Source of the DNA: Desulfosudaceae bacterium
Lineage (GTDB): Bacteria; Desulfobacterota; Desulfobacteria; Desulfobacterales; Desulfosudaceae
Assembly (NCBI GenBank): GCA_963674745.2
Contig: CAXXDV010000003.1
Coordinates: 2,048,001 to 2,112,000, forward strand
Length of the DNA stretch: 64,000 nucleotides
Direction of reading: 5' to 3'
Shown here: piece after piece, positions 7,444 to 28,775 of the stretch
Layout of the letters: each line of letters starts with the position of its first letter
Position numbering within the stretch: the first letter of the stretch is position 1
Notes under the pieces: model-generated
Told to the model about the DNA's origin: nothing
Database searches by the model: none
The model's input: only the letters and a program-made list of their open reading frames with translations
Position numbers and translations under genes: made by a program

Positions 7444-7453
7444 AATATACCTC

Positions 7454-13574: not shown

Positions 13575-13589
13575 TGGCACGATCCATGC
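13575..13589 (+). promoter_or_regulatory. Sigma-54 (-24/-12) promoter of the hdr operon
   Basis: TGGCACGATCCATGC with GG-N10-GC spacing, 18 nt before the ATG at 13608 and divergent from a sigma-54 activator. Confidence 0.8.
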
Positions 13590-13607: not shown

Positions 13608-14045
13608 ATGGAGAACTCACCAAACATACTGATCCTTTCCGAGGCCATGGAGCTTCGATTTTTTCTTGAGACAGTGCTGACAGAAGCGCATTACCGTACG
13701 ACCAGCGCAGTAAATATGGAGGAAGCACTGGAGCAGGTTGTCCGGGACACGCCGGCAATGGTTCTCATTGATGTGATGTCCAGCAAGCAGGGAATCTCCA
13801 TGTACAGGCAGCTCCGGCGACATGAAAAATATAAATTTATCCCGGTGATCATGCTTTCCTCGTTGGCAAGGGAAGCTTTTTTTCAGCTGCACAACATTGA
13901 ATACAGTCTTCCGAAAAAAGGGTTGCCCAAACCCGACGACTACCTGCCCAAACCCCCGGAAGCAGAAGAACTGATAGACGCGATTAAAAAAATATTCAAG
14001 GACAAGTCAACCCCTGGCAACAAAGGAAAAAGAACATGCAATTGA
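13608..14045 (+). CDS. Stand-alone response regulator receiver protein (atypical acidic pocket)
   Basis: REC pattern ILILSE...VLIDVM...PVIMLSS...YLPKP; no output domain. Confidence 0.8.
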   Translation: MENSPNILILSEAMELRFFLETVLTEAHYRTTSAVNMEEALEQVVRDTPAMVLIDVMSSKQGISMYRQLRRHEKYKFIPVIMLSSLAREAFFQLHNIEYSLPKKGLPKPDDYLPKPPEAEELIDAIKKIFKDKSTPGNKGKRTCN

Positions 14046-17000
14046 AGATCGGCTGTTATATCTGTCATTGCGGCATTAACATTGCCCATCGGGTGGATGT
14101 GGTGGAGGTGGCGAGGTTTGCAGGCACACTGGAAGGCGTTGTCATTGCCAGAGACTATAAATTCATGTGCTCTGATCCCGGCCAGGAAATGATCGAGGCA
14201 GATATTCATGAATTCGGACTGAACCGTGTAGTGGTGGCGTCCTGCTCTCCCAGACTCCATGAAAAAACCTTCCAGAGTGCTTGCAAGCGGGCCGGCATCA
14301 ACCCTTATCTTTTCCAGATGGCATCAATCCGGGAACAGGTTTCATGGGTGACGCTGGACGATGAAGAAGCGACGCGCAAAGCGAAAACCCTGGTTGCCGG
14401 TGCGGTCAACCGGGTCAAGGCCCATAACAGTCTTGAAACCCGGCATGTCAATGTCCATCCGGACATCATGGTCGTCGGCGGGGGCATTGCCGGCATGCAG
14501 GCGGCCCTGGATATCGGCAACAGCGGACATACCACCTACCTGGTGGAAAAATCCACGACCATCGGCGGCCACATGCTTCAATTCGATAAAACATTTCCAA
14601 CCCTGGACTGTGCGGCCTGCATCGGTACGCCGAAAATGGTGGAAGTGGCCCAGAATGCAAATATCGAGCTGCTTTCCTATTCGGAAGTAACCGGCGTTTC
14701 CGGCTACATCGGCAATTATGAGGTAACCATCCGGAGACGGCCACGGTATATCAAAGAAGATCTGTGCACCGGATGCGGAGAATGTACAAAAGCCTGTCCG
14801 GTCAGCTTTCCAAGTGAATGGGACGAATGCCTCCAGGACCGGAAAGCCATTTACAGGGCGTTTCCGCAGGCAGTCCCCATTACGTACTGTATCGACAAAC
14901 TTGATCCGGCTCCCTGCGTGCAGACCTGCCCGGCCCATGCGAATGTCCAGGGGTATATCCAGCTCATAAAAAAAGGTGAATACGAAAAAGCGGTCCGCCT
15001 GATCATGGAACGGATTCCATTACCCGGTGTTCTGGGGCGGGTCTGCCCGCATCCCTGTGAATCAGCCTGTCGCAGGGGCGATCTGGACACACCTCTTGCC
15101 ATCCGGGATTTGAAACGGTTCGCCGCAGACCAGGTGGACATGGAAACACTGGCAGTCCCTGAAATATCAGAACTGGGCAGAAAAATCGCTGTGATCGGCT
15201 CCGGGCCGGCCGGTTTGACAGCCGCCTATGATCTGCGGTTGAAAGGCTATGATGTTACCATTTTTGAAGCAGCCGGTCTTCCCGGCGGCATGCTGCGCAG
15301 CGGCATACCCGATTACCGCCTGCCGCAGGAAATACTGGATAAAGAGATCGGTTATATCCAGCGAATGGGCATTCGGATTGAAACCGGAAAAGCCCTGGGA
15401 AAACACGTCTTGACAGAACAGCTGAAATCTGACGGATTCGAGGCGGTTTTTCTCGGGATCGGTGCTCAGGGCGGCATGGCTCTGGATATTCAAGGTGAAA
15501 ACAGTCCCGGTGTAACAGATGCGATTCATTTTCTCCGGCAGGTCAGTCTCGGGAGCAGAGAGACGCCTGGCCGTATGGTAGCCATAATCGGTGGCGGTAA
15601 TGTGGCTGTTGATGCCGCCCGGACAGCCATTCGCCTGGGCGCGGAAGAAGTCATTCTGGCTTATCGTCGAACACGGGAGGAAATGCCGGCTTATGAGGAC
15701 GAAATCGAAGGCGCCCTGGCAGAGGGCGTGATATTGAGGCCGCTGGTGACACCTCTTGAGATCATTAAAAAAGACGGTCGCTGTGCGGGAATCCGGTGTG
15801 TGGAAAACCGCCTTGGTGACCCGGATGAAAGCGGCCGAAGGCGGCCGGAGCCTGTTGAAGGATCAGAATTCATACTGGCCTGTGACAGTGTAATCACTGC
15901 CATCGGTCAGGCCATTCTGCTGCCTGAAGATGCCACATTAAAAGAAATCGGTTTTGACCGCCGCAACCGCATCCGGGTCAATCCTGATACGCTCCAAACC
16001 GACATTGAATGGCTTTTTGCAGGCGGAGACATGGTCAGCGGACCCGCAACCGTTGTAGGAGCAGTATCCGGAGGACACCGGGCTGCCCATGCCATCCATC
16101 ATTATCTCTCAGGAAAGGATATGACGGAACTGCAGGGCTTCTTTGAATCTACAAAATCGATTGAAGAGAGTAACTATAAAGAGATACCGGCAAATGCAGC
16201 AATCTTAGAGCGGCAGGAATTAACCCACAGGGATGCCGGAAAACGGAAACACGATTTCAATGAAGAAACTGTCGGGTTTGATGCCGAGGGGGCAAAAGCC
16301 GAAGCTGAGCGTTGCCTGAACTGTCAGGGATGTTGTGAATGTATGGAATGTGTCCGGGCCTGTGAAGCAAAGGCCATTGATCATCTTATGAAACCTGAAG
16401 AAAAGACAGTCAAAGTCGGTTCCATTATCCTGACCACAGGCTATGATGTTCTGGACCCCACTGCCATGAAGCAATTTGGTTACGGCACTTTCCCCAATGT
16501 CTATACCAGTCTTGAATTTGAACGCCTTTCCAATGCCACCGGACCCACGGGCGGAGAAATCCTGATCCGGGACGACACCGGCGCTTTTGCCAGGGAGCCT
16601 AAAAGTGTGGCGCTACTGCACTGTATCGGCAGTCGGGATGCGAACTACCATGAATACTGTTCCCGTGTCTGCTGCATGTATGCGTTAAAATATTCCCACC
16701 TGATAAAGGAAAAAGTCGGGCATGACGCGGAGGTGTATGATTTTTACATTGATATGCGTTGCTTCGGAAAGGGATATGAAGAATTTTACCGCCGGTGCCA
16801 GGAAGAAGGCACCCATTTTATCCGCGGCAAGGCATCAGAAATTACGGACCAGGCGGAATCACCGGAAGAGGAAGGAAAGCTTGTGGTGATCGGTGAAGAT
16901 ACGCTTCTCTCCAGCCTGGTCCGCATTCCTGTGGATATGGTGGTGCTCTGTGTGGCCATGCAGGCCAGGGATGATGCCAGAGATGTCGGTCGAATTTTTG

Positions 17001-17455
17001 GTGTAAACCAGGGTTCGGACGGTTTTTTCCTTGAAGAACATCCCAAGCTGGGTCCGTTGAACACAGCGACGGACGGCGTTTTTATCGCCGGCGCCTGCCA
17101 GTCGCCGAAAGATGTCCCGGATACGGTGGCCCAGGCCTCTGGCGCCGCTGCAAAAGCCCTGTCGCTGGCATCCAGGGGCCAGGTCCAGGTATCATCAACC
17201 ATCTCCTGGATTGATCCGGATATCTGTGCCGGTTGTCAGATCTGCAGGCCTTTATGCCCGTATTCCGCTATTGAATTTGACGAACGCCGCAGGGTGTCCG
17301 TCGTCAATGAAGCCATCTGTAAAGGCTGTGGTTCATGCGCCGGGGCATGCCCGTCGGGCGCAGCCCAGGTCCGGCATTTTACGAAAAAACAAATGTTTTT
17401 AGAGTTTGAAGGTATTATGGCTGCCCTGAATAAGGTCCAGGCGCCGGCACAATAA
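14036..17455 (+). CDS. hdrA: HdrA-family flavoprotein with an inserted GltD-like NAD(P)/FAD domain (HdrL type)
   Basis: HdrA motifs ICHCG, VVASCSPRLHE, GGGIAG, DKTFPTLDC, CIGSRD...YCSRVCCMYA and C-terminal ferredoxin. Insert carries APCVQTCP, GRVCPHPCE, GSGPAG, GGGNVAVD, AGGD. Confidence 0.92.
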   Translation: MQLKIGCYICHCGINIAHRVDVVEVARFAGTLEGVVIARDYKFMCSDPGQEMIEADIHEFGLNRVVVASCSPRLHEKTFQSACKRAGINPYLFQMASIREQVSWVTLDDEEATRKAKTLVAGAVNRVKAHNSLETRHVNVHPDIMVVGGGIAGMQAALDIGNSGHTTYLVEKSTTIGGHMLQFDKTFPTLDCAACIGTPKMVEVAQNANIELLSYSEVTGVSGYIGNYEVTIRRRPRYIKEDLCTGCGECTKACPVSFPSEWDECLQDRKAIYRAFPQAVPITYCIDKLDPAPCVQTCPAHANVQGYIQLIKKGEYEKAVRLIMERIPLPGVLGRVCPHPCESACRRGDLDTPLAIRDLKRFAADQVDMETLAVPEISELGRKIAVIGSGPAGLTAAYDLRLKGYDVTIFEAAGLPGGMLRSGIPDYRLPQEILDKEIGYIQRMGIRIETGKALGKHVLTEQLKSDGFEAVFLGIGAQGGMALDIQGENSPGVTDAIHFLRQVSLGSRETPGRMVAIIGGGNVAVDAARTAIRLGAEEVILAYRRTREEMPAYEDEIEGALAEGVILRPLVTPLEIIKKDGRCAGIRCVENRLGDPDESGRRRPEPVEGSEFILACDSVITAIGQAILLPEDATLKEIGFDRRNRIRVNPDTLQTDIEWLFAGGDMVSGPATVVGAVSGGHRAAHAIHHYLSGKDMTELQGFFESTKSIEESNYKEIPANAAILERQELTHRDAGKRKHDFNEETVGFDAEGAKAEAERCLNCQGCCECMECVRACEAKAIDHLMKPEEKTVKVGSIILTTGYDVLDPTAMKQFGYGTFPNVYTSLEFERLSNATGPTGGEILIRDDTGAFAREPKSVALLHCIGSRDANYHEYCSRVCCMYALKYSHLIKEKVGHDAEVYDFYIDMRCFGKGYEEFYRRCQEEGTHFIRGKASEITDQAESPEEEGKLVVIGEDTLLSSLVRIPVDMVVLCVAMQARDDARDVGRIFGVNQGSDGFFLEEHPKLGPLNTATDGVFIAGACQSPKDVPDTVAQASGAAAKALSLASRGQVQVSSTISWIDPDICAGCQICRPLCPYSAIEFDERRRVSVVNEAICKGCGSCAGACPSGAAQVRHFTKKQMFLEFEGIMAALNKVQAPAQ

Positions 17456-17481
17456 CTTTTTGAGACAAGAGAGGACGTTTT

Positions 17482-17904
17482 ATGAGTGAATTCAATCCCC
17501 TGATTATCGCTTTTGTCTGCAACTGGTGTACCTATACAGCTGCAGATCTGGCCGGTACATCCCGCCTGAATTATCCGGACAACATCCGACTGATGCGTGT
17601 GATGTGTACCGGCATGGTGGACCCACAATATGTCATTAAGGCTTTTCTGGAAGGCGCGGACATGGTTTTGGTCAGTGGTTGCCATCCGGGCGATTGCCAC
17701 TATATCAACGGCAATTACAAGGCACGGCGCCGGATAAAACTGCTTCAGGAGATCCTGCCCGTGCTCGGTATTGAAAAAGAACGACTGAAACTGACCTGGA
17801 TCGGGGCCAGTGACGGCATCCAATTCGCACGTACCATGGAAGAACTGGTGGTTCAGGCAAAAAATCTGGGGCCCGGCCCGGGACGGCAGCAAATTGCCGT
17901 CTGA
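17482..17904 (+). CDS. mvhD: MvhD/FlpD-family [2Fe-2S] protein
   Basis: FVCNWCTYTAADLAG, RVMCTG, GCHPGDCHY motifs. Confidence 0.95.
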   Translation: MSEFNPLIIAFVCNWCTYTAADLAGTSRLNYPDNIRLMRVMCTGMVDPQYVIKAFLEGADMVLVSGCHPGDCHYINGNYKARRRIKLLQEILPVLGIEKERLKLTWIGASDGIQFARTMEELVVQAKNLGPGPGRQQIAV

Positions 17905-17919
17905 TCAGGAGGAAAACAA

Positions 17920-19059
17920 ATGGCATTGACAACCCGTATTACAGTTGAAAATAAAGATTTTCTGGCGGCTGCAAGGCATTTTTTGATCGATGTACTGAAT
18001 TCTGACAGTATTGATGCGATAGTGGTTCCGCTGGTTTCGGAAGGCGGCCATTCCATCATGCCGGAACTGGTAACGGTTCCTTCCCGGCTGGAACAGGCGG
18101 ATCCTTTGAGCCCTTGTTTCCCGATGAATTCTGCACGTCTGATTTCAAGGCTGACCCGCAAACCAGGGAACAGAAAAATTGCGGCCGTACTCAGGCCGTG
18201 TGAAATCCGGGCACTGGTAGAACTGGTTAAACTCAAACAGGCCCGACTGGACGACCTGATCGTGATCAGTATGGACTGCCTGGGGGCCTATTCCAACAAA
18301 GACTGGACCCTCATCAGCGCATCCGGGCCGGATAATTTTACCCGGACTTTTTATGAAAAACAACTTTCCGGCAGGCTTTCGGAGGAAGGCGAACCGGAAA
18401 TAACTTCAGCCTGCAGGGCCTGTGAATATCCGGTATCTGACCAGGCAGACATCACCTTTGATTTCCTGGGTACAGAGATTACCCGGGAATTTCATATTAC
18501 AGGAAAAAGCGATGCCGGAGAGGCCCTGATCCGTGACCTGGGTTTTGAAACATCAGAACTGCCAAAAGACAGGGGGGCCCGGATAGCGGATCTCACTGCC
18601 AGGCGCCTGGCATTCCGGGATGACATGTTTGCCAGAACCCGTGAGGCGGTTGCGCCCCTGGACAAGCTGTCTGTTTATTTTGAACGATGCGTGAACTGCT
18701 ATAACTGCCGGGTGGCCTGTCCGGTCTGCTATTGCAGAGAGTGTGTTTTCAACACGGACGTGTTTGACCACGATCCGTTTCAGTACATGGAAAAAGCCCA
18801 TCGCAGCGGCAGTCTCCGTCTGCCTTCGGACACGCTCTTTTTCCACATCACCCGGATGGCGCACATGAGCCTGTCCTGTGTGGGCTGCGGACAGTGTTCC
18901 AATGCCTGCCCCAATGACATCCCGGTGATGGAGGTTTTTCGTCTGGCAGCATCCGCAGCCCAGGACGGTTTTGGCTATATCCCGGGGATAAAAAAAGATG
19001 ACGCCCCGCCCCTGTCGGAATTTAAGGAAAACGAATTTGAAGAGGTTGTCGGCATTTAA
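17920..19059 (+). CDS. FrhB/FdhB-family Fe-S (flavo)protein
   Basis: VLRPCEIRALVEL, DCLG, ACRACEYP, CVNCYNCRVACPVCYCRECVF, CVGCGQCSNACP. Confidence 0.85.
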   Translation: MALTTRITVENKDFLAAARHFLIDVLNSDSIDAIVVPLVSEGGHSIMPELVTVPSRLEQADPLSPCFPMNSARLISRLTRKPGNRKIAAVLRPCEIRALVELVKLKQARLDDLIVISMDCLGAYSNKDWTLISASGPDNFTRTFYEKQLSGRLSEEGEPEITSACRACEYPVSDQADITFDFLGTEITREFHITGKSDAGEALIRDLGFETSELPKDRGARIADLTARRLAFRDDMFARTREAVAPLDKLSVYFERCVNCYNCRVACPVCYCRECVFNTDVFDHDPFQYMEKAHRSGSLRLPSDTLFFHITRMAHMSLSCVGCGQCSNACPNDIPVMEVFRLAASAAQDGFGYIPGIKKDDAPPLSEFKENEFEEVVGI

Positions 19060-19082
19060 CAAAATGATAAAAGGAAAAAAAC

Positions 19083-22000
19083 ATGAAGCCTGATCCCATG
19101 GATAATGAGCACAGCAACGCCCTGGTCGTCGGCGCAGGAATTTCCGGTATCCGCACTGCTCTGGATCTGGCCCAGCAGGGATACAGGGTGACGTTGATCG
19201 ACAGTAATCCGGCAACAGGCGGTCTGCTTAACCAGCTGGATTATCAGTTTCCCACTAATCACTGCGGCATGTGCAGGCTGCTGCCCCTGGTTCACCGGGA
19301 CCAGTCTTCCCAGCACTGCCTGCGCAAAGGTATTTTTCACGAAAACATCGACCTGCACTTATCCTGTGAGCTGCAGGATCTGTCCGGTGAGCCGGGAAAT
19401 TTTACGGCCCGGATAAAAGAAAAGCCGACCTGGGTGGATCCTGATCGATGCGTGGGATGTGGCCTTTGTGAACAGGTCTGCCCGGAAGAAATCCCGGACT
19501 GTTTCAACGAGGGGCTTTCCCGTAGAAAGGCGATTCATTTGCCCGTTCCCCATGCCATTCCAAATGCGTATGTTGTGGACCTGGCATTTTGCAGTCGTTG
19601 CGGCGCCTGTGAAGCGGTCTGTCCCACTGATGCGATTCAGCTGTCGGATGTCAACCGGAAGGCTTTTTCCATTCTGGTGGTGGATGATGAACTGAGCATC
19701 CGGGATTCCCTCAAAGAATGGCTGGAAGAAGAAGGTTTCAGCGTCGACATGGCCGATTCGGGCAAGGCGGCGCTTTCCGCGCTGGAAGAAAAAGAGTATC
19801 GTCTTATGCTGACCGACATCAAGATGCCGGAAATGGACGGCGTCGAGCTCTTGGCAAAGGCAAAAGAACTCCAGTCCGAGCTGAACGTGGTCATGATGAC
19901 AGCCTATGCTACCGTTGAGACGGCCATCGAAACCATGAAAACCGGCGCCCGGGATTACCTGATCAAACCGTTTGACCCGGAGACCCTGATACCCATGGTG
20001 GTCCGTATTTTTCAGGATGTCGAAGCATCAAAAGACCGGGTATTGTCAGTGGATACAGTTATCTTTGCCTGCGGTACCACTTTCTACAATCCCGCGGATA
20101 ACAAAAATGTTTATGGTTACGGGATTTATCCCAATGTACTCACCCACATCGAGTTTGAACGTATGCTCAGTCCGGCCGGCCCGAGTCCGGAAGGACTGCT
20201 GCGACGGGACAACAACAAGCCTGTAAAAAAAATTGCCTGGATTCAATGTGTCGGCTCAAGGGACATACAGAACGGGGCTGATTACTGCTCAGGCATCTGC
20301 TGTATGATTGCGGTAAAGGAGGCCATGCTGGCCAGACAGATGTCAGGCGGTCAAATTGAACCCGTTATTTTTTATATGGATATGCGGGCCTGGGGCAAGC
20401 CTTTTCAGTCTTATCTTGACGAAGCTGCGGAATCGGATCAAATCCGATTTGTCCGCTGCAAAGTTCACTCTTTAAGCGAGGATTCCGAGACCCGAGACCT
20501 TGTGCTGCGTTACATGGACCGGCCAGGACACGCCGTCTTTGAAAACTTTGATATGGTCGTTCTTTCCACAGGAATGCGGCCCGGTCCGGATATGGCGCGG
20601 CTGGCGGAAATCACAGGTGTCGGACTGAATCCCTGGGGATTTTTTGATCACCTTCCGTTTGAGCCTGCCAGGACCGGCCAGGACGGCATTTTTGTCTCCG
20701 GTTCCACCACGGAACTCCGGGACATCAGCGAGTCGATGATCACGGCCTCTGCTGCTGCTGCCAATGCTTCCGGAATTATCCGGAAGCAAGATGCCGGGCA
20801 AAAAATGCCGGCACTTCCCGTCTTACCTGAAAAGGATACAAGCCGGGAGCCCGTGCGGATTCTTCCGGTGATCTGCACCTGCAACGGACGCCTGGAGGCA
20901 GCGGTGACAAAAAAAGATATCGAGCAGGTTTTTGATTTCGACCCGGACCTTGACGATCCCGTTTTTATTGACCGGCTCTGCATGGCCCAGGGATGGCAGG
21001 AAATGAAAGACCACCTGGCAGACAGTGCCTGCAACCGGATGTTGATCGCCGCATGCCATCCTTATGTGTTTACGCCCGGAATCCGGAGGCTGAGGGATGA
21101 TCCCGGGGTTGATCCGGCCATGGTTCATGCCGTGGATACCATGACCCCTCTTTTCTCAACAAAACCGGAGAAAGCAGAAGAAAAAACATTACATTTATCC
21201 CGGATCGCCGCTGGCCTGCGCCAGGGAGCGGCCTTTCTGAAGCATGCCGAGCCCGCATCTCGCACTGAAACAGCCATGTGTCAGCGGGTACTGGTGATCG
21301 GGGGGGGGATCGCCGGCATGACGGCCGCCCTGGCTATTGCCGGTCAGGGCTTTGAGGTGGACCTGGTAGAAAAAGAAGAACAGTTTGGCGGCAATCTGAA
21401 CTGGCTTTCTTCCACCCTTGAGGGGCATGACGTCAAGGCCCTTCTCGAGGACACACTGTCCCGTCTAGGCAAAGCACCCGCCCTTTCACTTTATCCCGGT
21501 GCCCGGTTGGTGAATGTAACCGGAACCGCCGGTCATTTCCGGACGGTCCTCGAAGACGACCAGCAAAAAGGGGTGTCCCTGACACACGGCGCCGTCATCA
21601 TTGCCACCGGCGGCCGGGAATCAGATACCTGCGCCTTTTTGCATGGTGAAAATGACCGGGTGATCACCCAGAAAGCGCTGGAGGGAAAACTGTCTGAGGA
21701 AGGGGCCGATATTCCGGGTACAGTCGTGATGATTTTATGCGTTGACTCCAGGGTTCCGTCTGCGAACTACTGTTCCCAGGTCTGCTGCCCGACAGCGATA
21801 AAACAGGCGAGAGAAATCAAACGGCGCAGCCCGGACACAGAAATTTTTATTTTCTACCGGGATATGATGACCTGCGGTTTTTCAGAGACTTATTTCACCC
21901 ATGCCAGAAATGAAGGCATTATTTTCATCCCCTATTCACTGGACAAGCTTCCGGAAGTAAAAGCCATAGAGGACGGTATTCAGGTCTGCGGGAACGATCC

Positions 22001-22532
22001 CATCCTGGATCAGTCTCTTGAAATTTCAGCCGATCTTCTAATCCTTGCCACTGGAATTACACCGGAGTTGCCTGAAGATCTTGCAGAGATGCTTGGTATC
22101 GTCCGTGATAAAAACGGTTTTTTTAATGAAGCGGACCCCAAATGGCGTCCTTTGGACAGTCTCACCGAAGGCATTTTTGCCTGCGGTATTGTCCAGGCAC
22201 CCCGATCAGTGGAAAAGAGCATTGGAACGGCTCAGGCCGCAGCGCAGCGGGCCATGAGCATTATCAGCCAGCCCCGTTACCGGATGGACAGGACCACAGC
22301 ATCCGTCCGGCATGCAATCTGCAGCCGCTGTGAAGCCTGCATCCCGGTTTGCCCTTACAACGCACGAACACTGAACACAGAAGAAGACAGGATTCAGGTC
22401 AATGCATTGGCCTGCCAGGGATGCGGGGCCTGTGCAGCAGCCTGTCCCAATGGAGCGGCTATCCTTGAAGGCTTTTCCAGCCGTCAGATGCTGGATGGTA
22501 TTGACGCAGTCTTTTATCCGCTGCCGAATTAA
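19083..22532 (+). CDS. hdrA: Tandem (two FAD-domain) HdrA-family protein with an internal response-regulator receiver domain
   Basis: GAGISG...DYQFPTNHCGMC, ferredoxin motifs, REC domain at ~19665-20020, CVGSRD...CSGICC, second GGGIAG module and C-terminal 2x[4Fe-4S]. Confidence 0.92.
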   Translation: MKPDPMDNEHSNALVVGAGISGIRTALDLAQQGYRVTLIDSNPATGGLLNQLDYQFPTNHCGMCRLLPLVHRDQSSQHCLRKGIFHENIDLHLSCELQDLSGEPGNFTARIKEKPTWVDPDRCVGCGLCEQVCPEEIPDCFNEGLSRRKAIHLPVPHAIPNAYVVDLAFCSRCGACEAVCPTDAIQLSDVNRKAFSILVVDDELSIRDSLKEWLEEEGFSVDMADSGKAALSALEEKEYRLMLTDIKMPEMDGVELLAKAKELQSELNVVMMTAYATVETAIETMKTGARDYLIKPFDPETLIPMVVRIFQDVEASKDRVLSVDTVIFACGTTFYNPADNKNVYGYGIYPNVLTHIEFERMLSPAGPSPEGLLRRDNNKPVKKIAWIQCVGSRDIQNGADYCSGICCMIAVKEAMLARQMSGGQIEPVIFYMDMRAWGKPFQSYLDEAAESDQIRFVRCKVHSLSEDSETRDLVLRYMDRPGHAVFENFDMVVLSTGMRPGPDMARLAEITGVGLNPWGFFDHLPFEPARTGQDGIFVSGSTTELRDISESMITASAAAANASGIIRKQDAGQKMPALPVLPEKDTSREPVRILPVICTCNGRLEAAVTKKDIEQVFDFDPDLDDPVFIDRLCMAQGWQEMKDHLADSACNRMLIAACHPYVFTPGIRRLRDDPGVDPAMVHAVDTMTPLFSTKPEKAEEKTLHLSRIAAGLRQGAAFLKHAEPASRTETAMCQRVLVIGGGIAGMTAALAIAGQGFEVDLVEKEEQFGGNLNWLSSTLEGHDVKALLEDTLSRLGKAPALSLYPGARLVNVTGTAGHFRTVLEDDQQKGVSLTHGAVIIATGGRESDTCAFLHGENDRVITQKALEGKLSEEGADIPGTVVMILCVDSRVPSANYCSQVCCPTAIKQAREIKRRSPDTEIFIFYRDMMTCGFSETYFTHARNEGIIFIPYSLDKLPEVKAIEDGIQVCGNDPILDQSLEISADLLILATGITPELPEDLAEMLGIVRDKNGFFNEADPKWRPLDSLTEGIFACGIVQAPRSVEKSIGTAQAAAQRAMSIISQPRYRMDRTTASVRHAICSRCEACIPVCPYNARTLNTEEDRIQVNALACQGCGACAAACPNGAAILEGFSSRQMLDGIDAVFYPLPN

Positions 22533-22562
22533 GAATCAAAAAAAGTGCCACGGAGCATGACT

Positions 22563-23141
22563 ATGAAAAAAAAAGAAAATATCGTCCCGGAACGAGCAAA
22601 ACATCTTTTGGCAGCTGTGAGGGAAATGGTTCAGCCCTGCATCCAGTGCGGAACCTGTACCGGTTCATGCCCCAACGCTTTTGCCATGACACATACACCC
22701 AGAGCGCTGTGGCACATGGTGATAGAAGGTCAGGACGCTGAAGTATTGTCCAGCAAGACCTTTATTCTCTGCTCCTCCTGTTACTCATGCACCCTCCGCT
22801 GCCCCCGAGGGCTGCCGTTGACAAATGCCATGTCCCTGCTGACCCAGGCGGCCAGAGATGAAAATCAGCCCTGGTTTGTCAAAAGCCAGGCTTTTTATAC
22901 GGCATTTCTGGACAGTGTCCGCCGTCGAAAGCGCGTAAATGAGACTGAATTTATGTCTCTCTTCTTCTGGAAAATGAAAAATCCGATCCTTTCTCTGCAA
23001 TTTGCTTCCCTGGGCCTGAAACTGATGAAGAAACGCAAAATCAGTCTTCCGGTGTTTTTCCCGGGACAGGAAACAGGGCTTGAAAAAATTTTTGAAAAAA
23101 CCCGGCAGGTGGAAGCCGGACAAATGGAGAAAAAGGCATGA
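22563..23141 (+). CDS. hdrC: Heterodisulfide reductase subunit C-like Fe-S protein
   Basis: CIQCGTCTGSCP and CSSCYSCTLRCPRG. Start uncertain (22545/22557/22563); GGAG precedes 22563. Confidence 0.9.
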   Translation: MKKKENIVPERAKHLLAAVREMVQPCIQCGTCTGSCPNAFAMTHTPRALWHMVIEGQDAEVLSSKTFILCSSCYSCTLRCPRGLPLTNAMSLLTQAARDENQPWFVKSQAFYTAFLDSVRRRKRVNETEFMSLFFWKMKNPILSLQFASLGLKLMKKRKISLPVFFPGQETGLEKIFEKTRQVEAGQMEKKA

Positions 23142-24055
23142 AATATCTTTATTATCCCGGATGTTCCCTGGAGGGTACGGCTCTGGAATACAACCGCTCG
23201 ACCTGTTCCCTCATGGCGGCCCTGGGAGTGGAACTGGTGGAGATTGATGACTGGTCCTGCTGCGGGGCCAGTGCGGCCACAACGATATCTGAACTGCTTT
23301 CCCTTGTACTACCGGCCCGAAATCTGGCGCTGGCAGAAAGGATGTGCGAAGAAACCGGTGAAAAGCTGGATATTTTAGTACCCTGTTCGGCCTGCTATCT
23401 AAATTTAAAAAAAGTATCTGAACAGGCAGCGGCAAACCCTGCGTTGCTGGATCAGCTGAACTCGATTCTGGCAGAAGATGGACTGAAACTCGAGAATCAC
23501 TTGAATGTCCGTCACCTGCTCGATGTGCTCAGCAAAGACTTAGATCCGGACCATCTGGCCGCAAGCGTCATATCTCCGCTGTTCGGGGTATCAGCCGCAC
23601 CATATTACGGGTGTCAGTGCCTGAGGCCCTACCCTGTTTTTGATGATCCGGAGAAACCCGAATCAATGGATGCCCTGATCCGGGCCTGTGGTGCAACGCC
23701 CTATGCCTGGGCCATGGGAGGGGTCTGCTGCGGCGCATCACATATGAATACAAAACCGGAAGTCGGAAAAACGTTGGTTGGACGTATCCTGAGCCGGGCC
23801 GGAAATGCCGACGTCATCCTGACGGTCTGTCCAATGTGCCAGATGAACCTTGAAGGATATCAGAAAAAAACCGGCCATGCCTGTCATAAGGAATTCAATA
23901 CCACGATTCTGTATCTTCCACAATTTATCGGAATCGCGCTGGGCCTCTCAGAAGAACAGGTCCGCACGGATTTAAACCTTTCAATCACAGCCGATTTCAA
24001 AAAAAAGATAGAAAATTTGACACGCACGTCCTTAACTCAGGCGTCTTCAGGATAG
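23138..24055 (+). CDS. hdrB: Heterodisulfide reductase subunit B
   Basis: YYPGCSL, DWSCCGA, PCSACY, PYYGCQ, CCGASH, CPMCQMNLE (two CCG domains). Confidence 0.93.
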   Translation: MKYLYYPGCSLEGTALEYNRSTCSLMAALGVELVEIDDWSCCGASAATTISELLSLVLPARNLALAERMCEETGEKLDILVPCSACYLNLKKVSEQAAANPALLDQLNSILAEDGLKLENHLNVRHLLDVLSKDLDPDHLAASVISPLFGVSAAPYYGCQCLRPYPVFDDPEKPESMDALIRACGATPYAWAMGGVCCGASHMNTKPEVGKTLVGRILSRAGNADVILTVCPMCQMNLEGYQKKTGHACHKEFNTTILYLPQFIGIALGLSEEQVRTDLNLSITADFKKKIENLTRTSLTQASSG

Positions 24056-24078
24056 TCCAACAATATAAGGAGGGTATT

Positions 24079-25392
24079 ATGTTTAAAAAAATTCTTTTGG
24101 CGACTACGCCGGCAGACGAGTCAAAAGGGGCGGCAGATCTTGCTTTTGCCATGGCAAGGCCGAGCAGTTCAAAGCTTTACATCTTTCATGCCTATGGGCT
24201 TCCGGATCAGGGATGGGGCAACATGCGTTATCTTTTGCCGTCCGGCAAGGTAGACGAGGCCGAAAAAGAACTGGAAGCTTATTTTAAAGCAGACCTGGAA
24301 GCTGTGGAAAATTATGAAGTCAAAGTTGTTCCGGGCGTTCCTGAAATTGAGATTCTCAGGTATGCCAGAAAGCATAATGTGGATGTGATTGTCATGGGCC
24401 CGCACCGGGTGGAACAGAATCAGCCGCGTATCTGGGGAATGACGGGTTCCACCATACAGAAAGTCAGCCTCAAGGCCCGGTGTCCGGTGATGATCGTCCC
24501 ACCGGATATGCCGGAAATTTTTCGTCCGGAAGAAGTCCATCTTTCAAAGGAAGACCGTCTAAGTTACAATGTCCTTGTTGTCGACGACGAACTTTCAATG
24601 CGTGATTCTTTAAAAGAATGGCTGACCGAAGAAGGGTTTACCGCTGATATGGCGGAATCCGGGGAGCAGGCACTTGAAATGCTGTCTAAAAAAACATATC
24701 AGCTCATGCTGACAGACATCAAGATGCCGGGTATGGACGGGGTTACACTGCTGGAAAAGGCAAAGCAGTATTATCCCCGGCTTGCCGTGGTCATGATGAC
24801 GGCCTATGCCACCATTGATACTGCCCTGCGCGCGACAAAAAAAGGGGCACTGGATTACCTGGTCAAACCCTTTGATCCGGAACAGCTGATTCCGAAACTC
24901 CGGCAGTTTCATCAGGATTACGAACTCACCCGCGGACGGTTTAAAATTGCTTTTTCAAACATTGTTCTTGCAACAGACTTCAGCAAACCGGCATTTTGTG
25001 CATTTAATTTTGCATTGGATATCGCGCAGGTATATGACGCAACCCTGCATATTTTTCATGTCCTGCCGGATACTGATCATGAAAAAATTCTGCCCCAGGC
25101 TGAAGTAGAACGAAACATCCAGGAAGCCCTGTCAAAAATGGAACAGCGCTATGGCCCTGATCTTTCTGCAGTTGTTGATTATTCAATGGATTCCTGGGAA
25201 GGCGTTCCTCATGCAGAAATTTTGAAATTTGCCAGATGGAAATATGCCGATCTCATCATAATGGCCCATCATTCCAGGGAGCGGGATCCGGAAAGCGCTG
25301 TTCTTGGCTCCACAGTGATTAAAGTTGCCTCCAGTGCCCGGTGCCCGGTACTGAGCATTAACAGGGATTTCATTCCTCGCTGCTGTGCCTGA
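24079..25392 (+). CDS. USP-REC-USP protein (tandem universal stress protein with inserted receiver domain)
   Basis: USP1 MFKKILLAT...GSTIQKV...CPVMIV; REC VLVVDDE...TDIKMPGMDG...MTAY...KPF; USP2 NIVLATDFS...LGSTVIKV...CPVLSI. Confidence 0.92.
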   Translation: MFKKILLATTPADESKGAADLAFAMARPSSSKLYIFHAYGLPDQGWGNMRYLLPSGKVDEAEKELEAYFKADLEAVENYEVKVVPGVPEIEILRYARKHNVDVIVMGPHRVEQNQPRIWGMTGSTIQKVSLKARCPVMIVPPDMPEIFRPEEVHLSKEDRLSYNVLVVDDELSMRDSLKEWLTEEGFTADMAESGEQALEMLSKKTYQLMLTDIKMPGMDGVTLLEKAKQYYPRLAVVMMTAYATIDTALRATKKGALDYLVKPFDPEQLIPKLRQFHQDYELTRGRFKIAFSNIVLATDFSKPAFCAFNFALDIAQVYDATLHIFHVLPDTDHEKILPQAEVERNIQEALSKMEQRYGPDLSAVVDYSMDSWEGVPHAEILKFARWKYADLIIMAHHSRERDPESAVLGSTVIKVASSARCPVLSINRDFIPRCCA

Positions 25393-25403
25393 TAACGGAG
25401 TTC

Positions 25404-26957
25404 ATGATGAATGAAGATAAAACGGAATGGAAAATCGTATTAATCGATGATGAACCCGATATCAGGGAGGTGATCCAGATCGTCCTGACGGACTGGGGAT
25501 ATACTGTTTTTACGGCTGATAACGGGTTGTCCGGCCTGGCATTGTGCCGGAAAATCTCTCCCCAGGTGGTGATCACCGATGTAAAAATGCCTGGTATGGG
25601 AGGTCTCCAGGTACTGGCACGCCTGAAAGAAGTGCAACCAAGAATTGAAGTCATCGTGATGACGGCTTTCGGGGATATCGAAACCGCCATCGAGGCGATT
25701 CAGCTGAATGCATCTGATTTTATCACAAAGCCGGTCAATGACCAGGCATTGGAACTGGCCATTGATCGGGCGAAACAGCGATATACATCGGCCAGGCAGA
25801 TCAGGGAACACGCAAAGATGCTGGAAAACGGCTGGATGCAGGCCAACCGTGAGCTTGAGAAAAACTACCACTTCCAGGATAAAATTATCAATAATTCCAT
25901 CAGTGGGATTATTGCCAGCGGTCCGGATGGCCTGATTAAACTTTTTAATGCCAGTGCCGAAAAGATGACCGGCTTCAAAGCAGCTGAAATCCTGGGGACA
26001 AAAAAACTGGCTTCCCTTTTCGACGAAAACGATTTCAACGAGATCGAACTGGCTCTGGCTGATAATGGTCACGGTGGACCGAACCGGATCGATCTTATGG
26101 AATCAATGATCAAGGACGATAATGGTACACATATCCCTGTTCAGATTTCAGCCAGCCTTTTGTTCGACAACCAGAAACATGAAGGTACGCTGATCTGCCT
26201 GCGGGATCTCAGGGAATTGCGCCGGATCGAAAGGGAAATGGCGGACCAGGAGAAAATCCTGCACCAGGACAAAATGATGTCTCTTGGAAGACTGGCCGCG
26301 TCTGTGGTTCATGAAATCAACAACCCCCTGTCCGGAATTTTGAATTATCTGCGGCTTATGGAAAAAATGACCCGGAAGCCCCTGGATGAAACAAAACTTG
26401 AAAAATTTTCCGGGTACCTGGAAATTGCGTCCAAAGAAACGGCCCGCTGTTCTTCTATCATTTCAAATCTTCTGATTTTTTCCAGAAAATCATCAATCAG
26501 TTATGAAGCCGTGAACGTGACAGATCTTCTGGAGCGGACGGCTCTGCTCATCCGCCACAAACTCGAACTGTCCAACGTATCCCTCTTACTCGAGCGTCCC
26601 GCCGACATTCCTGACTTAAAAGCGGATGCCAACCAGATTCAGCAATGTCTGATCAATCTTATTTTTAATGCCCTGGATGCAACACCGGAAGGGGGCACCA
26701 TCACCATCAGTGCGGATCACCCTTCAGGTACCAACCAAATCAATATATCCATCGCCGACTCCGGCAGCGGCATCCCTGAAAAAGACCTGCCATATATTTT
26801 TGATCCTTTTTTTACAACCAAAAAAGAAGGCCATGGTGTCGGGCTGGGGCTTTCAACCGTTTACGGCATCATGGAACGCCATGGCGGGGCCGTCCGGGTA
26901 GCAGAGACCGGTCCTTCCGGCACCCGCTTTATTTTGGAATTCAACTCCCTGGCTTAA
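25404..26957 (+). CDS. Cytoplasmic hybrid histidine kinase (REC-PAS-HisKA-HATPase)
   Basis: IDDE...TDVKMPG receiver; PAS (FNASAEKMTG); H-box VVHEINNPL; N, G1, F, G2 boxes. Confidence 0.93.
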   Translation: MMNEDKTEWKIVLIDDEPDIREVIQIVLTDWGYTVFTADNGLSGLALCRKISPQVVITDVKMPGMGGLQVLARLKEVQPRIEVIVMTAFGDIETAIEAIQLNASDFITKPVNDQALELAIDRAKQRYTSARQIREHAKMLENGWMQANRELEKNYHFQDKIINNSISGIIASGPDGLIKLFNASAEKMTGFKAAEILGTKKLASLFDENDFNEIELALADNGHGGPNRIDLMESMIKDDNGTHIPVQISASLLFDNQKHEGTLICLRDLRELRRIEREMADQEKILHQDKMMSLGRLAASVVHEINNPLSGILNYLRLMEKMTRKPLDETKLEKFSGYLEIASKETARCSSIISNLLIFSRKSSISYEAVNVTDLLERTALLIRHKLELSNVSLLLERPADIPDLKADANQIQQCLINLIFNALDATPEGGTITISADHPSGTNQINISIADSGSGIPEKDLPYIFDPFFTTKKEGHGVGLGLSTVYGIMERHGGAVRVAETGPSGTRFILEFNSLA

Positions 26958-26972
26958 AAAAAGACAAGGTAC

Positions 26973-28775
26973 GTGGTTTCTCTCAGCAATTTTAAAAAAA
27001 GCATTGCCTGTAAATTGATCCTCGCAGCAGGGCTGACGGTCCTGATAACAGTTTTTATCGGCGCGCTCCTCTTCATCCAATATGAAGAAACAAAGACGCT
27101 GATTTCTTTTGCCGTATTCATTTTTTTGATCTGTTCTTCAATTATTGCGATTTTCGTCATGCGTTTTGTGAACCGCCCGATTAAACAATTAATCTGGGAA
27201 ACCCGCCGGATTAATCAGAAGGCCCATGGCCGGATAGAAGGCTTCCGGGGCGGAGAGATCAAGCAGCTTGCAGAAGCGATCAATGAGATGGCTGAACAAA
27301 TGGATCTCAAGCAGAAAATATTGAATGAACAGCGCCAGGAATATCAGAATCTGTTTGAGGCAGTGCCCTGTCTGATTACAGTTCAGAACCGAAATTTTGA
27401 ACTTCTGCAGTACAACCGAAAATTCAAGGAACGCTTCCATCCAGATAAAGGGGCGCTTTGCTACCAGGCATATAAGAACCGCTCCAGTCCATGCCAGAAT
27501 TGTCCTATGGTTGAAACGTTCAAAGACGGTAAATCCCACCATGGTGAACAAAGCAGCATGACCCGGTCCGGGAAAACTTCCTACTGGACGTTGCGAACAG
27601 CCCCGATCAAGGACGCCGACGGCAACGTCACCGCTGTGATGGAAATATCCGTCGATATCACAAAAATGCGTCTGCTGGAAAATGAAGTCCGGAGATCTGA
27701 AGAAAAATACAGGGCCATTTTTGATAATACACCTAATCCACTGTTTGTTTTGGAAAGAGAAACACTGAAAATTCTGGACTGCAATGCAAGTGCGCATCAG
27801 ATATACGCGTATACGAAAAAAGAGATGCTTTCCCTGCAATTCGGAGATTTTTTTGACCCTGAATTTGAGCCGGAAGCCACGGCAGCTATCCGGGCATGTA
27901 GAACGCTCACAAGGGTCCGTCATCTTGGTAAAAACGGAAAAATTATTTTTGTCGACATCAGTGTTGCACCATCACAATACCAGGCATCCCGGGTGCTCCT
28001 GGCCAATGCCACCGATGTGACGGAACGGCTAACGGCAGAACAGCAGCTGATTCAGACCAGCAAAATGGCAACCCTCGGAGAGATGGCAACGGGTATTGCC
28101 CATGAATTGAACCAGCCCCTCACCGTGATCAAGACCGCGGCCGGCTTCATTCTGCGCAAAGCCCAGAAAAAGGAACCTATTGACGACGAAATCATGTCCA
28201 CCATGGCTGAAAAGATTGACGGACAGGTGAACCGGGCATCTAAAATCATCAATCACATGCGAGAATTCGGTCGAAAATCTGATGTGGTCAAAAAAACAGC
28301 CGATGTCAACCGGGCTCTGAACAATGCGTTTGATATTTTCCGTCAGCAGCTGAAACTGCACCAGATCGATGTGATCCGGCGCCTGACGCCTGATCTGCCT
28401 TTGGTTTTGGCTGATGAAAACCGTCTGGAACAGGTTTTTATCAATATCCTGATCAATGCCAGAGATGCCATTGATTCAAAATCTGTATTGGAAGAGGAGC
28501 AAGCCGATTCCATGGAATTAAAGCAGATCTACCTGACCACAAAAAGATCAGGCGGCGGGGTGGTTGTTGAAATAGAAGATACAGGCACCGGCATTCCAGA
28601 AGCGATTACAAACAAAATCTTTGACCCTTTTTTCACGACAAAACAGGCCGGTAAGGGAACCGGTCTCGGCTTGTCCATCTCTTATGGTATCATCAAGGAT
28701 TATGATGGACATATAAGCGTTCAAAAGGGAAAGTTCAACGGCGCATTATTCATCATCAAGCTTCCCTGCGCATGA
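26973..28775 (+). CDS. Membrane histidine kinase (2 TM-HAMP-PAS-PAS-HisKA-HATPase)
   Basis: Two adjacent hydrophobic helices, HAMP, PAS with CY...PCQNCP, IAHELNQPL, DPFFTTK, GTGLGLS. Confidence 0.92.
   Translation: MVSLSNFKKSIACKLILAAGLTVLITVFIGALLFIQYEETKTLISFAVFIFLICSSIIAIFVMRFVNRPIKQLIWETRRINQKAHGRIEGFRGGEIKQLAEAINEMAEQMDLKQKILNEQRQEYQNLFEAVPCLITVQNRNFELLQYNRKFKERFHPDKGALCYQAYKNRSSPCQNCPMVETFKDGKSHHGEQSSMTRSGKTSYWTLRTAPIKDADGNVTAVMEISVDITKMRLLENEVRRSEEKYRAIFDNTPNPLFVLERETLKILDCNASAHQIYAYTKKEMLSLQFGDFFDPEFEPEATAAIRACRTLTRVRHLGKNGKIIFVDISVAPSQYQASRVLLANATDVTERLTAEQQLIQTSKMATLGEMATGIAHELNQPLTVIKTAAGFILRKAQKKEPIDDEIMSTMAEKIDGQVNRASKIINHMREFGRKSDVVKKTADVNRALNNAFDIFRQQLKLHQIDVIRRLTPDLPLVLADENRLEQVFINILINARDAIDSKSVLEEEQADSMELKQIYLTTKRSGGGVVVEIEDTGTGIPEAITNKIFDPFFTTKQAGKGTGLGLSISYGIIKDYDGHISVQKGKFNGALFIIKLPCA

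Follow-up and report, generated by a model that had tools for sequence, protein, structure and literature searches.

Can an enzyme of anaerobic energy metabolism be switched through a signalling domain that lies within its own chain? This question is raised by an open reading frame at positions 19083-22532 (+ strand) of a 64,000-nt stretch of a Desulfosudaceae genome (assembly GCA_963674745.2, contig CAXXDV010000003.1, positions 2,048,001 to 2,112,000; the whole stretch is called the window below). Its 1149-residue product, P0001, carries a complete phospho-receiver domain (REC) inside subunit A of heterodisulfide reductase (HdrA). Flavin-based electron bifurcation serves as the central energy-saving device of many anaerobes, and, to our knowledge, the control of heterodisulfide reductase (Hdr)-type enzymes has been discussed only as gene expression and intrinsic conformational gating. 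The REC-bearing HdrA is no artefact, and it is both widespread and conserved; databases annotate it, but its function is unexplored in the literature searched. With a receiver in the very subunit that houses both bifurcating flavin and ferredoxin outlet, and with sensor kinases in the operon, the locus provides a concrete case for phosphorylation switching of an Hdr complex, and we lean towards post-translational control of this Hdr-type complex by His-Asp phosphorylation.

A receiver domain within a fused HdrA chain

The receiver family (Response_reg, PF00072) was placed by Pfam at residues 197-305 of P0001 (nucleotides 19671-19997), with an E-value of 5.1e-31 and 107.6 bits versus a cut-off of 30.2. 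Fer4 motifs lay upstream of the receiver (residues 117-136 and 170-189), Fer4_7 matched residues 1080-1125, and Pyr_redox_2, FAD_binding_2, and NAD_binding_8 matched residues 13-50 and 735-863; the GxGxxG glycines G17, G19, G22, G740, and G742 were invariant in an alignment of 118 family sequences, to which the invariant cysteines below also refer. Among the PDB chains compared by phmmer, 9SFI, 5ODC, and 8RVU matched best, in four aligned pieces (E 1e-110 to 1e-105). Residues 12-187 and 322-501 of P0001 aligned with residues 145-310 (the start of the flavin adenine dinucleotide (FAD) domain and the inserted ferredoxin domain) and 320-498 of 5ODC HdrA, respectively, and residues 592-745 and 970-1144 aligned with HdrA residues 5-155 (the N-terminal cluster domain and, in P0001, the start of the second FAD domain) and 473-650 (where the FAD domain ends, plus the C-terminal ferredoxin domain). 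Because these pieces end and resume at HdrA residues 310 and 320, REC fills the 8-residue linker 311-318 of canonical HdrA. In the same genome, four tandem HdrA paralogues lacking REC matched only residues 11-193 and 315-1144 of P0001, and REC is therefore a clean modular insert of approximately 120 residues; as the layout of the paralogues is otherwise the same, this modularity counts in favour of a regulatory receiver.

The AlphaFold2 model of P0001, for which the 118 family members served as the input alignment, had a mean predicted local distance difference test score (pLDDT) of 87.2 and a predicted template modelling score (pTM) of 0.88, and Foldseek ranked HdrA chains from Hdr complexes highest among its matches (E 1e-44 to 1e-41). 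Residues 196-315 were modelled as a regular (beta-alpha)5 fold with five strands and five helices (block pLDDT 84-95 over residues 191-310). Its last helix, alpha5 (residues 299-315), would be followed after a one-residue gap by a strand of the FAD domain (residues 317-328), while approximately 10 residues tether the N-terminus of REC to the ferredoxin domain's last cluster ligand. The receiver was of the NtrC type, its best solved matches being the receivers of NtrC1, FleR, FixJ, and NtrC (E 1e-22 to 1e-14 for solved receivers).

These results bear on a sequence-only reading of the window, which had described a receiver in frame between a ferredoxin insert and the point where the chain re-enters the FAD domain, with D201, D202, D245, T273, and K295-P296 retained. 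Pfam and the PDB alignment agreed with that placement, the residues were found at these positions, and the domain search and structure prediction that it had proposed as checks recovered the HdrA plus REC architecture and an HdrA fold like that of methanogens, with REC modelled as (beta-alpha)5. Its HdrA label was correct as to family and incomplete as to the chain, which is not a single HdrA but a fusion of two complementary halves.

Judged by its domains and cysteines, P0001 is an asymmetric pseudo-dimer of two complementary HdrA halves in a single chain. Half 1 (residues 8-570) has neither an N-terminal cluster domain nor a C-terminal ferredoxin domain but contains the inserted ferredoxin domain; its C64 stands opposite the selenocysteine (X) of 9SFI, which is the Cys/Sec197 position of methanogen HdrA in the alignment with 9SFI and 5ODC. 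Half 2 has the N-terminal-like domain, but neither an inserted ferredoxin domain nor an FPTxxCxxC motif, and Pfam gave no Fer4 match within residues 735-1070. The invariant cysteines comprised C61 and C64, those of the inserted ferredoxin domain (C123, C126, C129, C133, C170, C173, C176, and C180), the cluster cysteines of the FAD domain that align with 5ODC HdrA cysteines (C389, C402, C406, and C407), those of the N-terminal-like domain (C598, C600, C633, and C658), and the cluster cysteines of half 2 (C886, C897, C901, and C902). All 16 cysteines of the two ferredoxin domains, each of which occurs once per fused chain, were invariant. An N-terminal cluster domain to which the partner protomer would contribute Cys/Sec197 was thus recognised at the sequence level, and P0001 showed every feature by which HdrA and REC are recognised at that level. 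Because the halves are complementary and there is a single inserted ferredoxin domain, only one low-potential (ferredoxin-side) exit can form, and REC would be attached to this sole predicted outlet, which leads from the N-terminal cluster to the inserted ferredoxin domain.

A further feature of half 1 is a 10-residue insertion after the Cys197-type motif relative to methanogen HdrA (approximately residues 70-83; window positions 19290-19330). Within it, R72, D73, Q77, C79, R81, and G83 were invariant, C79 being an extra cysteine beside the flavin-proximal cysteine pair.

Methanogen HdrA (5ODC, 9SFI, 8RVU, and 7BKB) shares with P0001 the FAD/thioredoxin-reductase-like core with its C-X12-C-X3-CC motif, the inserted and C-terminal ferredoxin domains, the N-terminal cluster domain, and hdrC, hdrB, and mvhD as neighbours, and the HdrA chains of HdrABC-MvhAGD relatives matched P0001 at E 1e-110 to 1e-75. 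P0001 differs in its fused halves, in the REC within linker 311-318, in the conserved 10-residue loop with C79, and in its non-methanogen host. Fused HdrAs are known from elsewhere: in the excerpts of PMC9012536, HdrA3/4 of anaerobic methanotrophic archaea (ANME) and the HdrA of the Moorella MetFV-HdrABC-MvhD complex are single chains with two HdrA units and complementary loss of the N-terminal domain and Cys197. P0001 resembles these 'self-heterodimers' in its complementary halves and the implied broken two-fold symmetry, whereas the order of its halves is opposite, with the Cys197-type half first and the N-terminal-domain half second, and no REC is described for the ANME and Moorella fusions in those excerpts (PMC9012536).

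A second comparison is offered by HdrL, in which, as in P0001, an HdrA core has taken up a foreign domain close to its inserted ferredoxin domain, and which is co-encoded with MvhD (PMC2702500, in part). The HdrL module is a redox input and separates the two cluster motifs of the ferredoxin domain, whereas the REC of P0001 is a signalling domain just past that domain. The idea that the NfnB-like module of HdrL occupies exactly the site of REC was considered and rejected, as BLASTP places the module between the cluster motifs; the hdrL product of the window matched P0001 in the pieces 139-287, 788-1031, and 855-1131.

Response regulators with enzymatic outputs include CheB, PleD/WspR, and RpfG. 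P0001 is like them in that a canonical receiver is covalently joined to a catalytic domain, but unlike CheB-type regulators, its receiver is internal in a loop of the enzyme rather than N-terminal, and its output belongs to a larger complex, in which it is an electron-transfer subunit with several cofactors. This broadens the range of response regulators by an unusual topology, in which a loop of the output enzyme holds the receiver.

Conservation, origin, and earlier records of the receiver

Residues 1-700 of P0001 were used to search a protein collection, which gave 2635 matches among 8000 scored candidates, and the best 120 were examined. PF00072 was present in all 120, of which 118 had lengths of 1129-1181 residues and two were partial, and D201, D202, D245, T273, Y292, K295, and P296 as well as the junctions were the same throughout. 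The mean column conservation in the alignment of these sequences was highest in REC (0.83, versus 0.53-0.81 in other segments), with helix alpha1 and the beta4-alpha4-beta5 region almost invariant. A pattern search of species-representative genomes yielded 575 confirmed relatives; 80 loci were kept for residue and synteny counts, and in every one of them the match extended across both junctions with the seven residues intact. Degenerate Asp or Lys residues in homologues, which the sequence-only reading had named as grounds for giving up its proposal, were found neither in the 120 homologues nor in the 80 loci. By its sequence, the receiver appears to be phosphorylation-competent and under strong purifying selection.

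Carriers included Desulfonema magnum, D. limicola, Desulfatirhabdium butyrativorans, the Delta 3 and Delta 4 symbionts of Olavius algarvensis, a metagenome-assembled genome (MAG) of Desulfamplus, and MAGs labelled Syntrophobacteraceae. Of 401 genomes that sampled the phylum evenly, 10, including that of the window, contained a junction-spanning match, representing eight families and open frames of 1153-1255 residues; the other 83 sampled genomes with a match at E <= 1e-30 matched in the REC part only. The ESM Atlas clusters with an identical domain set were all labelled Thermodesulfobacteriota. The family is common among marine and sediment sulfate reducers of the Desulfobacterales type and gutless-worm symbionts.

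The sequence data also bear on whether a response-regulator gene was misjoined into hdrA by assembly or gene calling. The short-read contigs of two runs covered positions 19083-19698 and 19676-22532 and therefore end within the start of REC (19676-19698), where the sequence is repeated in a paralogous REC gene; both runs belong to a single sample, from which the window itself may derive, and are hence not independent, and two further runs covered small shares. On the other side, the REC-to-FAD junction lies within a 14-kb contig, a 993-nt contig extends approximately 30 nt beyond the ferredoxin-to-REC junction, and the source genome (5.55 Mb in 3 contigs) is 99.96% complete. All 120 homologues, which come from many assemblies, and all 80 species loci share these in-frame junctions, which practically refutes such an artefact, and the misassembly against which the sequence-only reading had warned was not found.

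For the origin of the receiver, the best 150 of 1848 representatives at E <= 1e-30 were taken, and 45 of them were dropped for length. The remaining 105 (900-1260 residues) and seven family members gave 112 sequences, from which, after removal of the REC columns (987 columns kept), a FastTree tree was built and midpoint-rooted. The common-ancestor node of the 16 REC-bearing sequences had a support of 0.93 and comprised 20 tips. The four extra tips were P0136, a REC-bearing fragment missed by the column count, the N-terminally truncated P0133, and two full-length sequences without REC, P0123 (1021 residues) and P0131 (1014 residues). The simplest reading is that REC was likely gained once and lost occasionally; a single origin is held only likely because REC-less members lie inside the clade, the tree was midpoint-rooted, and only representatives were included. 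The N-terminal part of P0133 (926 residues, without REC) resembled canonical HdrA (FPTNDCAMC), while the remainder grouped tightly with the REC-bearing P0004; this sequence may be a recombinant or a chimeric assembly.

The sequence-only reading had presented the architecture as uncharacterised, with the caveat that database or literature mentions might exist. The caveat was justified and the rarity overstated, considering the 575 confirmed relatives, the 10 of 401 phylum genomes, and existing database names of homologues, which include 'response regulator' and 'heterodisulfide reductase subunit A'. In the 2009 genome paper on Desulfobacterium autotrophicum HRM2, the key of Fig. S3a contains the symbol 'Histidinkinase response regulator receiver domaine' among Hdr drawings (PMC2702500); going by this key rather than the drawings themselves, an Hdr protein appears to carry the symbol. 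According to the legend of Fig. 4 in that paper, locus VIII contains hdrL/hdrA4/hdrC/hdrB together with a response regulator and a histidine kinase, a gene order equal to that of the cluster in the window (PMC2702500). The main text of PMC2702500 contains no occurrence of 'receiver' and draws no functional conclusion there. A survey of HdrA domains (bioRxiv 10.1101/2024.09.26.615249) showed, in its available portion, no occurrence of 'response regulator', 'receiver', or 'CheY' and no REC in the figure legend. In the full texts searched, which leave most subscription journals outside, no discussion or test of a receiver domain in HdrA was found.

Kinase linkage and the possible role of the receiver

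Nine genes on the + strand, at 14036-28775 and with gaps of at most 26 nt, form the cluster (Table 1). Their predicted products are a soluble flavin/iron-sulfur complex of the Hdr type, composed of HdrL, MvhD, an FrhB-like subunit, the fused HdrA-HdrA', HdrC, and HdrB, and its own signalling module, which would consist of a USP-REC-USP protein and two PAS histidine kinases, HK1 and HK2. Their common strand and short gaps bear out the earlier claim that the kinases are co-encoded with hdrA. 'HdrABC-MvhD bifurcation' in this host is presumed from homology, the bacteria here not being methanogens.

Synteny was counted among those of the 80 loci with enough flank. The upstream neighbours were an FrhB-like gene immediately adjacent in 52 of 54 loci, MvhD in 49 of 51, and HdrL in 39 of 43, and the downstream neighbours were HdrC in 48 of 64 and HdrB in 44 of 60. 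An HK2 orthologue (at least 40% identity and at least 50% coverage, on the same strand, within 6 kb downstream) was present in 35 of the 56 loci whose downstream flank measured at least 6 kb, and any HK1- or HK2-like gene in 42 of the 56; the synteny survey suggested by the sequence-only reading thus found linkage with an HK2-type kinase kept. In four loci (L046, L080, L031, and L058), a HAMP-PAS-PAS kinase of approximately 770 residues and a REC-HATPase protein of approximately 400 residues stood behind the hdr genes, directly after hdrB in L046, L080, and L058 and directly after hdrA in L031. The REC-HATPase proteins are counterparts of HK1 placed after the HK2 orthologue, and their receivers showed 43-50% identity to the HK1 receiver versus 36-40% to the HdrA REC.

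Helix alpha1 of receivers is the main determinant of kinase specificity. The near-invariant alpha1 of the HdrA REC and the H-box region (DHp), which was almost invariant among 41 HK2-type sequences, together speak for a pairing of HK2 with D245, and HK2 is a candidate for the cognate kinase.

The HK2 of the window itself deviates from its orthologues. Its HAMP domain lies at residues 61-109, whereas the orthologues compared (L046:15060-17372, L080:14926-17247, L031:13463-15751, and L058:10830-13154) are approximately 760-775 residues long with HAMP at about residues 222-285. It follows from this offset that the window HK2 is short of approximately 165 residues at its N-terminus; the missing part is presumably an extracytoplasmic sensor loop. 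Relative to the other loci, the two kinase genes of the window also stand in swapped order.

The third signalling gene encodes a close relative of the HdrA receiver. The receiver of the USP-REC-USP protein was 64% identical to the HdrA REC over 124 residues, with a nearly identical alpha1, and the protein was 55% identical to P0001 residues 183-338, which include the flanking linkers. For comparison, HdrA RECs of other genera were 62-74% identical to the HdrA REC and other local receivers 33-35%. The USP-REC-USP receiver thus looks like a copy of the HdrA REC, linkers included, set between two USP domains. With several receivers facing two kinases in the cluster, the HdrA REC might be a phosphate sink or a redox-reporting receiver, so that the enzyme would be the sensor rather than the target, and the redox or conformational state of Hdr would set the phosphorylation or dephosphorylation of D245 and thereby tune the phosphate passed to the receivers of USP-REC-USP and HK1. 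Given their likeness, the two receivers would probably compete for the same kinase, and the conservation of an HK1-type REC-kinase beside the HK2 type suggests a multi-step relay. We nevertheless regard a sink or reporter as unlikely: the USP-REC-USP gene occurred in only 4 of 56 loci, so that competition would not be a family-wide role, the cluster encodes no DNA-binding or other classical output, and the apparently rigid splicing of REC into the enzyme core in the model would be needless for a sink.

Pfam detected no DNA-binding domain in any of the nine cluster genes, and the lack of a DNA-binding response regulator among them fits a post-translational rather than a transcriptional output. 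The case for post-translational regulation by His-Asp phosphorylation, towards which we lean, is so far built on domain fusion and synteny, and several points weigh against it. The REC-less P0123 and P0131 nest in the REC-bearing clade, and the enzyme can therefore work without REC. Within 6 kb downstream on the same strand, 21 of the 56 loci had no HK2-type gene, and no HK1- or HK2-like gene was present in the fetched flanks of 14 of the 56. Three further receivers in the cluster (USP-REC, HK1, and others nearby) would make phosphate flow ambiguous, and the position of REC relative to the clusters and the ferredoxin-docking surface is indicated in the model by chain topology only.

Loci without a related kinase in their fetched flanks would also be expected if REC were a structural or docking module independent of phosphorylation, the kinases serving other receivers or transcription. 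Atypical receivers exist, and two sigma-54 activators upstream of the operon could explain its regulation. However, all seven pocket and switch residues were invariant in both surveys (120/120 homologues and 80/80 loci), which is not expected without phosphorylation chemistry, and kinase linkage is kept in most loci. We therefore consider a phosphorylation-independent module improbable.

How regulation by phosphorylation might work can be outlined more tentatively. In solved Hdr complexes, according to the available parts of the literature, the inserted ferredoxin domain serves as docking point and low-potential exit (PMC13518236), and conformational gating belongs to the Hdr mechanism (PMC13518236, PMC9012536). 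Phosphorylation of D245 could gate the low-potential ferredoxin branch by moving or blocking the single inserted ferredoxin domain, a possibility to which we give less credence than to regulation as such. An HK2-type kinase, perhaps through or jointly with the REC-kinase HK1 in the role of a relay or modulator, would phosphorylate D245; the T273/Y292 switch would then remodel the alpha4-beta5-alpha5 face, and the change in REC would shift or occlude the ferredoxin domain relative to the flavin and cluster chain or alter the geometry of the flavin. A shift of the ferredoxin domain is proposed because alpha5 is continuous with the FAD strand and so few residues separate the N-terminus of REC from the last cluster ligand. 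The flow of electrons through the complex might be turned on or off or changed between coupled and uncoupled, and the PAS kinases would open or close the low-potential branch in seconds, without new protein synthesis.

Alternatively, REC might govern assembly, with phosphorylation driving dimerisation of the complex or the docking and release of the HdrL-MvhD-FrhB-like input or of HdrBC. NtrC-type receivers, to which REC belongs by its best solved matches, often act by phosphorylation-dependent dimer changes on the alpha4-beta5-alpha5 face. The almost invariant beta4-alpha4-beta5 region of the family fits this, as does the canonical Hdr, which is a dimer of HdrABC units (PMC9012536, in excerpts). 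Conversely, the modelled continuity of alpha5 with a core strand may limit a classical dimer on this face, conservation of alpha4 is also a general trait of NtrC-type receivers, and the present data pinpoint no partner. A homodimer prediction for REC (residues 190-318, two copies, own alignment, without controls) scored 0.12 versus a mark of 0.42 and counts neither way. Overall, control of assembly seems rather unlikely.

If phosphorylation does gate the low-potential branch, this would be the first signalling-controlled electron-bifurcation switch. Members of the family are common in complete-oxidising sulfate reducers, which are important to marine carbon and sulfur cycling, and D245, BeF3-, and acetyl phosphate would provide a natural handle for trapping conformational states of Hdr.

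Feature coordinates and neighbouring genes

The coordinates of the nine cluster genes and of the domains of P0001 are listed in Table 1.

Table 1. Genes of the hdr cluster and domains of P0001, in window positions
Feature	Position	Strand	Basis
hdrL-type gene, 1139 aa, HdrA core with NfnB/GltD-like NAD(P)H module inside ferredoxin domain	14036..17455	+	Fer4_20, Pyr_redox_2
mvhD/FlpD-type [2Fe-2S] electron-transfer subunit, 140 aa	17482..17904	+	PF02662, E 1.9e-51
FrhB/FdhB-like iron-sulfur flavoprotein subunit, 379 aa	17920..19059	+	weak FrhB_FdhB_C match and Fer4
Fused tandem HdrA with embedded REC, P0001	19083..22532	+	Pfam, PDB alignment, AlphaFold2, Foldseek
Half 1, start of FAD (thioredoxin-reductase-like) domain, aa 8-110	19104..19412	+	C64 opposite Cys/Sec197 of methanogen HdrA
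Inserted ferredoxin domain, 2x[4Fe-4S], aa 111-190, sole one in P0001	19413..19652	+	Fer4; HdrA 237-310
REC, aa 196-315; D245 codon 19815-19817	19668..20027	+	PF00072; (beta-alpha)5 in model
Half 1, remaining FAD domain, aa 317-570, C389/C402/C406/C407 motif	20031..20792	+	aligns with HdrA 320-498
Half 2, HdrA N-terminal-domain-like, aa 592-730, C598/C600/C633/C658	20856..21272	+	aligns with HdrA 5-155
Half 2, second FAD domain, aa 731-1070, without inserted ferredoxin domain or Cys197-type motif	21273..22292	+	Rossmann matches from aa 735
C-terminal ferredoxin domain, 2x[4Fe-4S], aa 1071-1149	22293..22532	+	Fer4_7; aligns with HdrA 573-650
hdrC-like ferredoxin subunit, 198 aa	22545..23141	+	Fer4_8
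hdrB-like subunit, two CCG domains, 305 aa	23138..24055	+	PF02754, two stretches
USP-REC-USP protein, 437 aa	24079..25392	+	Usp (two) and Response_reg
HK1, REC-PAS-HisKA-HATPase kinase, 517 aa	25404..26957	+	Pfam
HK2, HAMP-PAS-PAS-HisKA-HATPase sensor kinase, 600 aa, conserved partner candidate	26973..28775	+	Pfam

The two sigma-54 enhancer-binding proteins just upstream of the hdr operon are encoded at 9551-11614 (+) and 11626-13383 (-); one of them contains PAS, AAA+, and HTH_8, and neither contains REC. A TGGCAC-N5-aTGC sequence at 13575-13589 (+), in the 652-nt gap upstream of hdrL, is a lead only, as the sigma-54 pattern with at most two mismatches occurred 59 times in the window versus 69.7 expected by chance. 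Scans of the window for sigma-70 promoters and terminators gave results at chance level.

Downstream of the operon, at a distance of 3.5 kb, lies a gene for a hybrid kinase of 1150 residues (32293-35745, +; CHASE4-PAS-HisKA-HATPase-REC-REC-Hpt), whose receivers were 33-34% identical to the HdrA REC; a sulfatase/GDPD-like gene (29182-31842) lies between. On the other side of the cluster, genes at 6169-7497 (-) and 7454-8932 (-) encode an HdrD-like protein (Fer4_8 and two CCG domains) adjoining a FAD_binding_4 protein. This pair resembles a lactate/glycolate-dehydrogenase-type module and would be another Hdr-related module nearby.

Elsewhere in this genome, beyond the window, four paralogues of the HdrA/HdrL type (G000; C1:2465144-2465662, C1:2469009-2469527, C1:2492692-2493183, and C3:862248-862745) have a single in-frame TGA codon in the segment matching P0001 residues 6-193. 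Because this segment holds the Cys/Sec197 position (C64 in P0001), these paralogues are probably selenocysteine forms, and such forms are reported for HdrA1, HdrA2, HdrL1, and HdrL3 of D. autotrophicum in the available part of PMC2702500.

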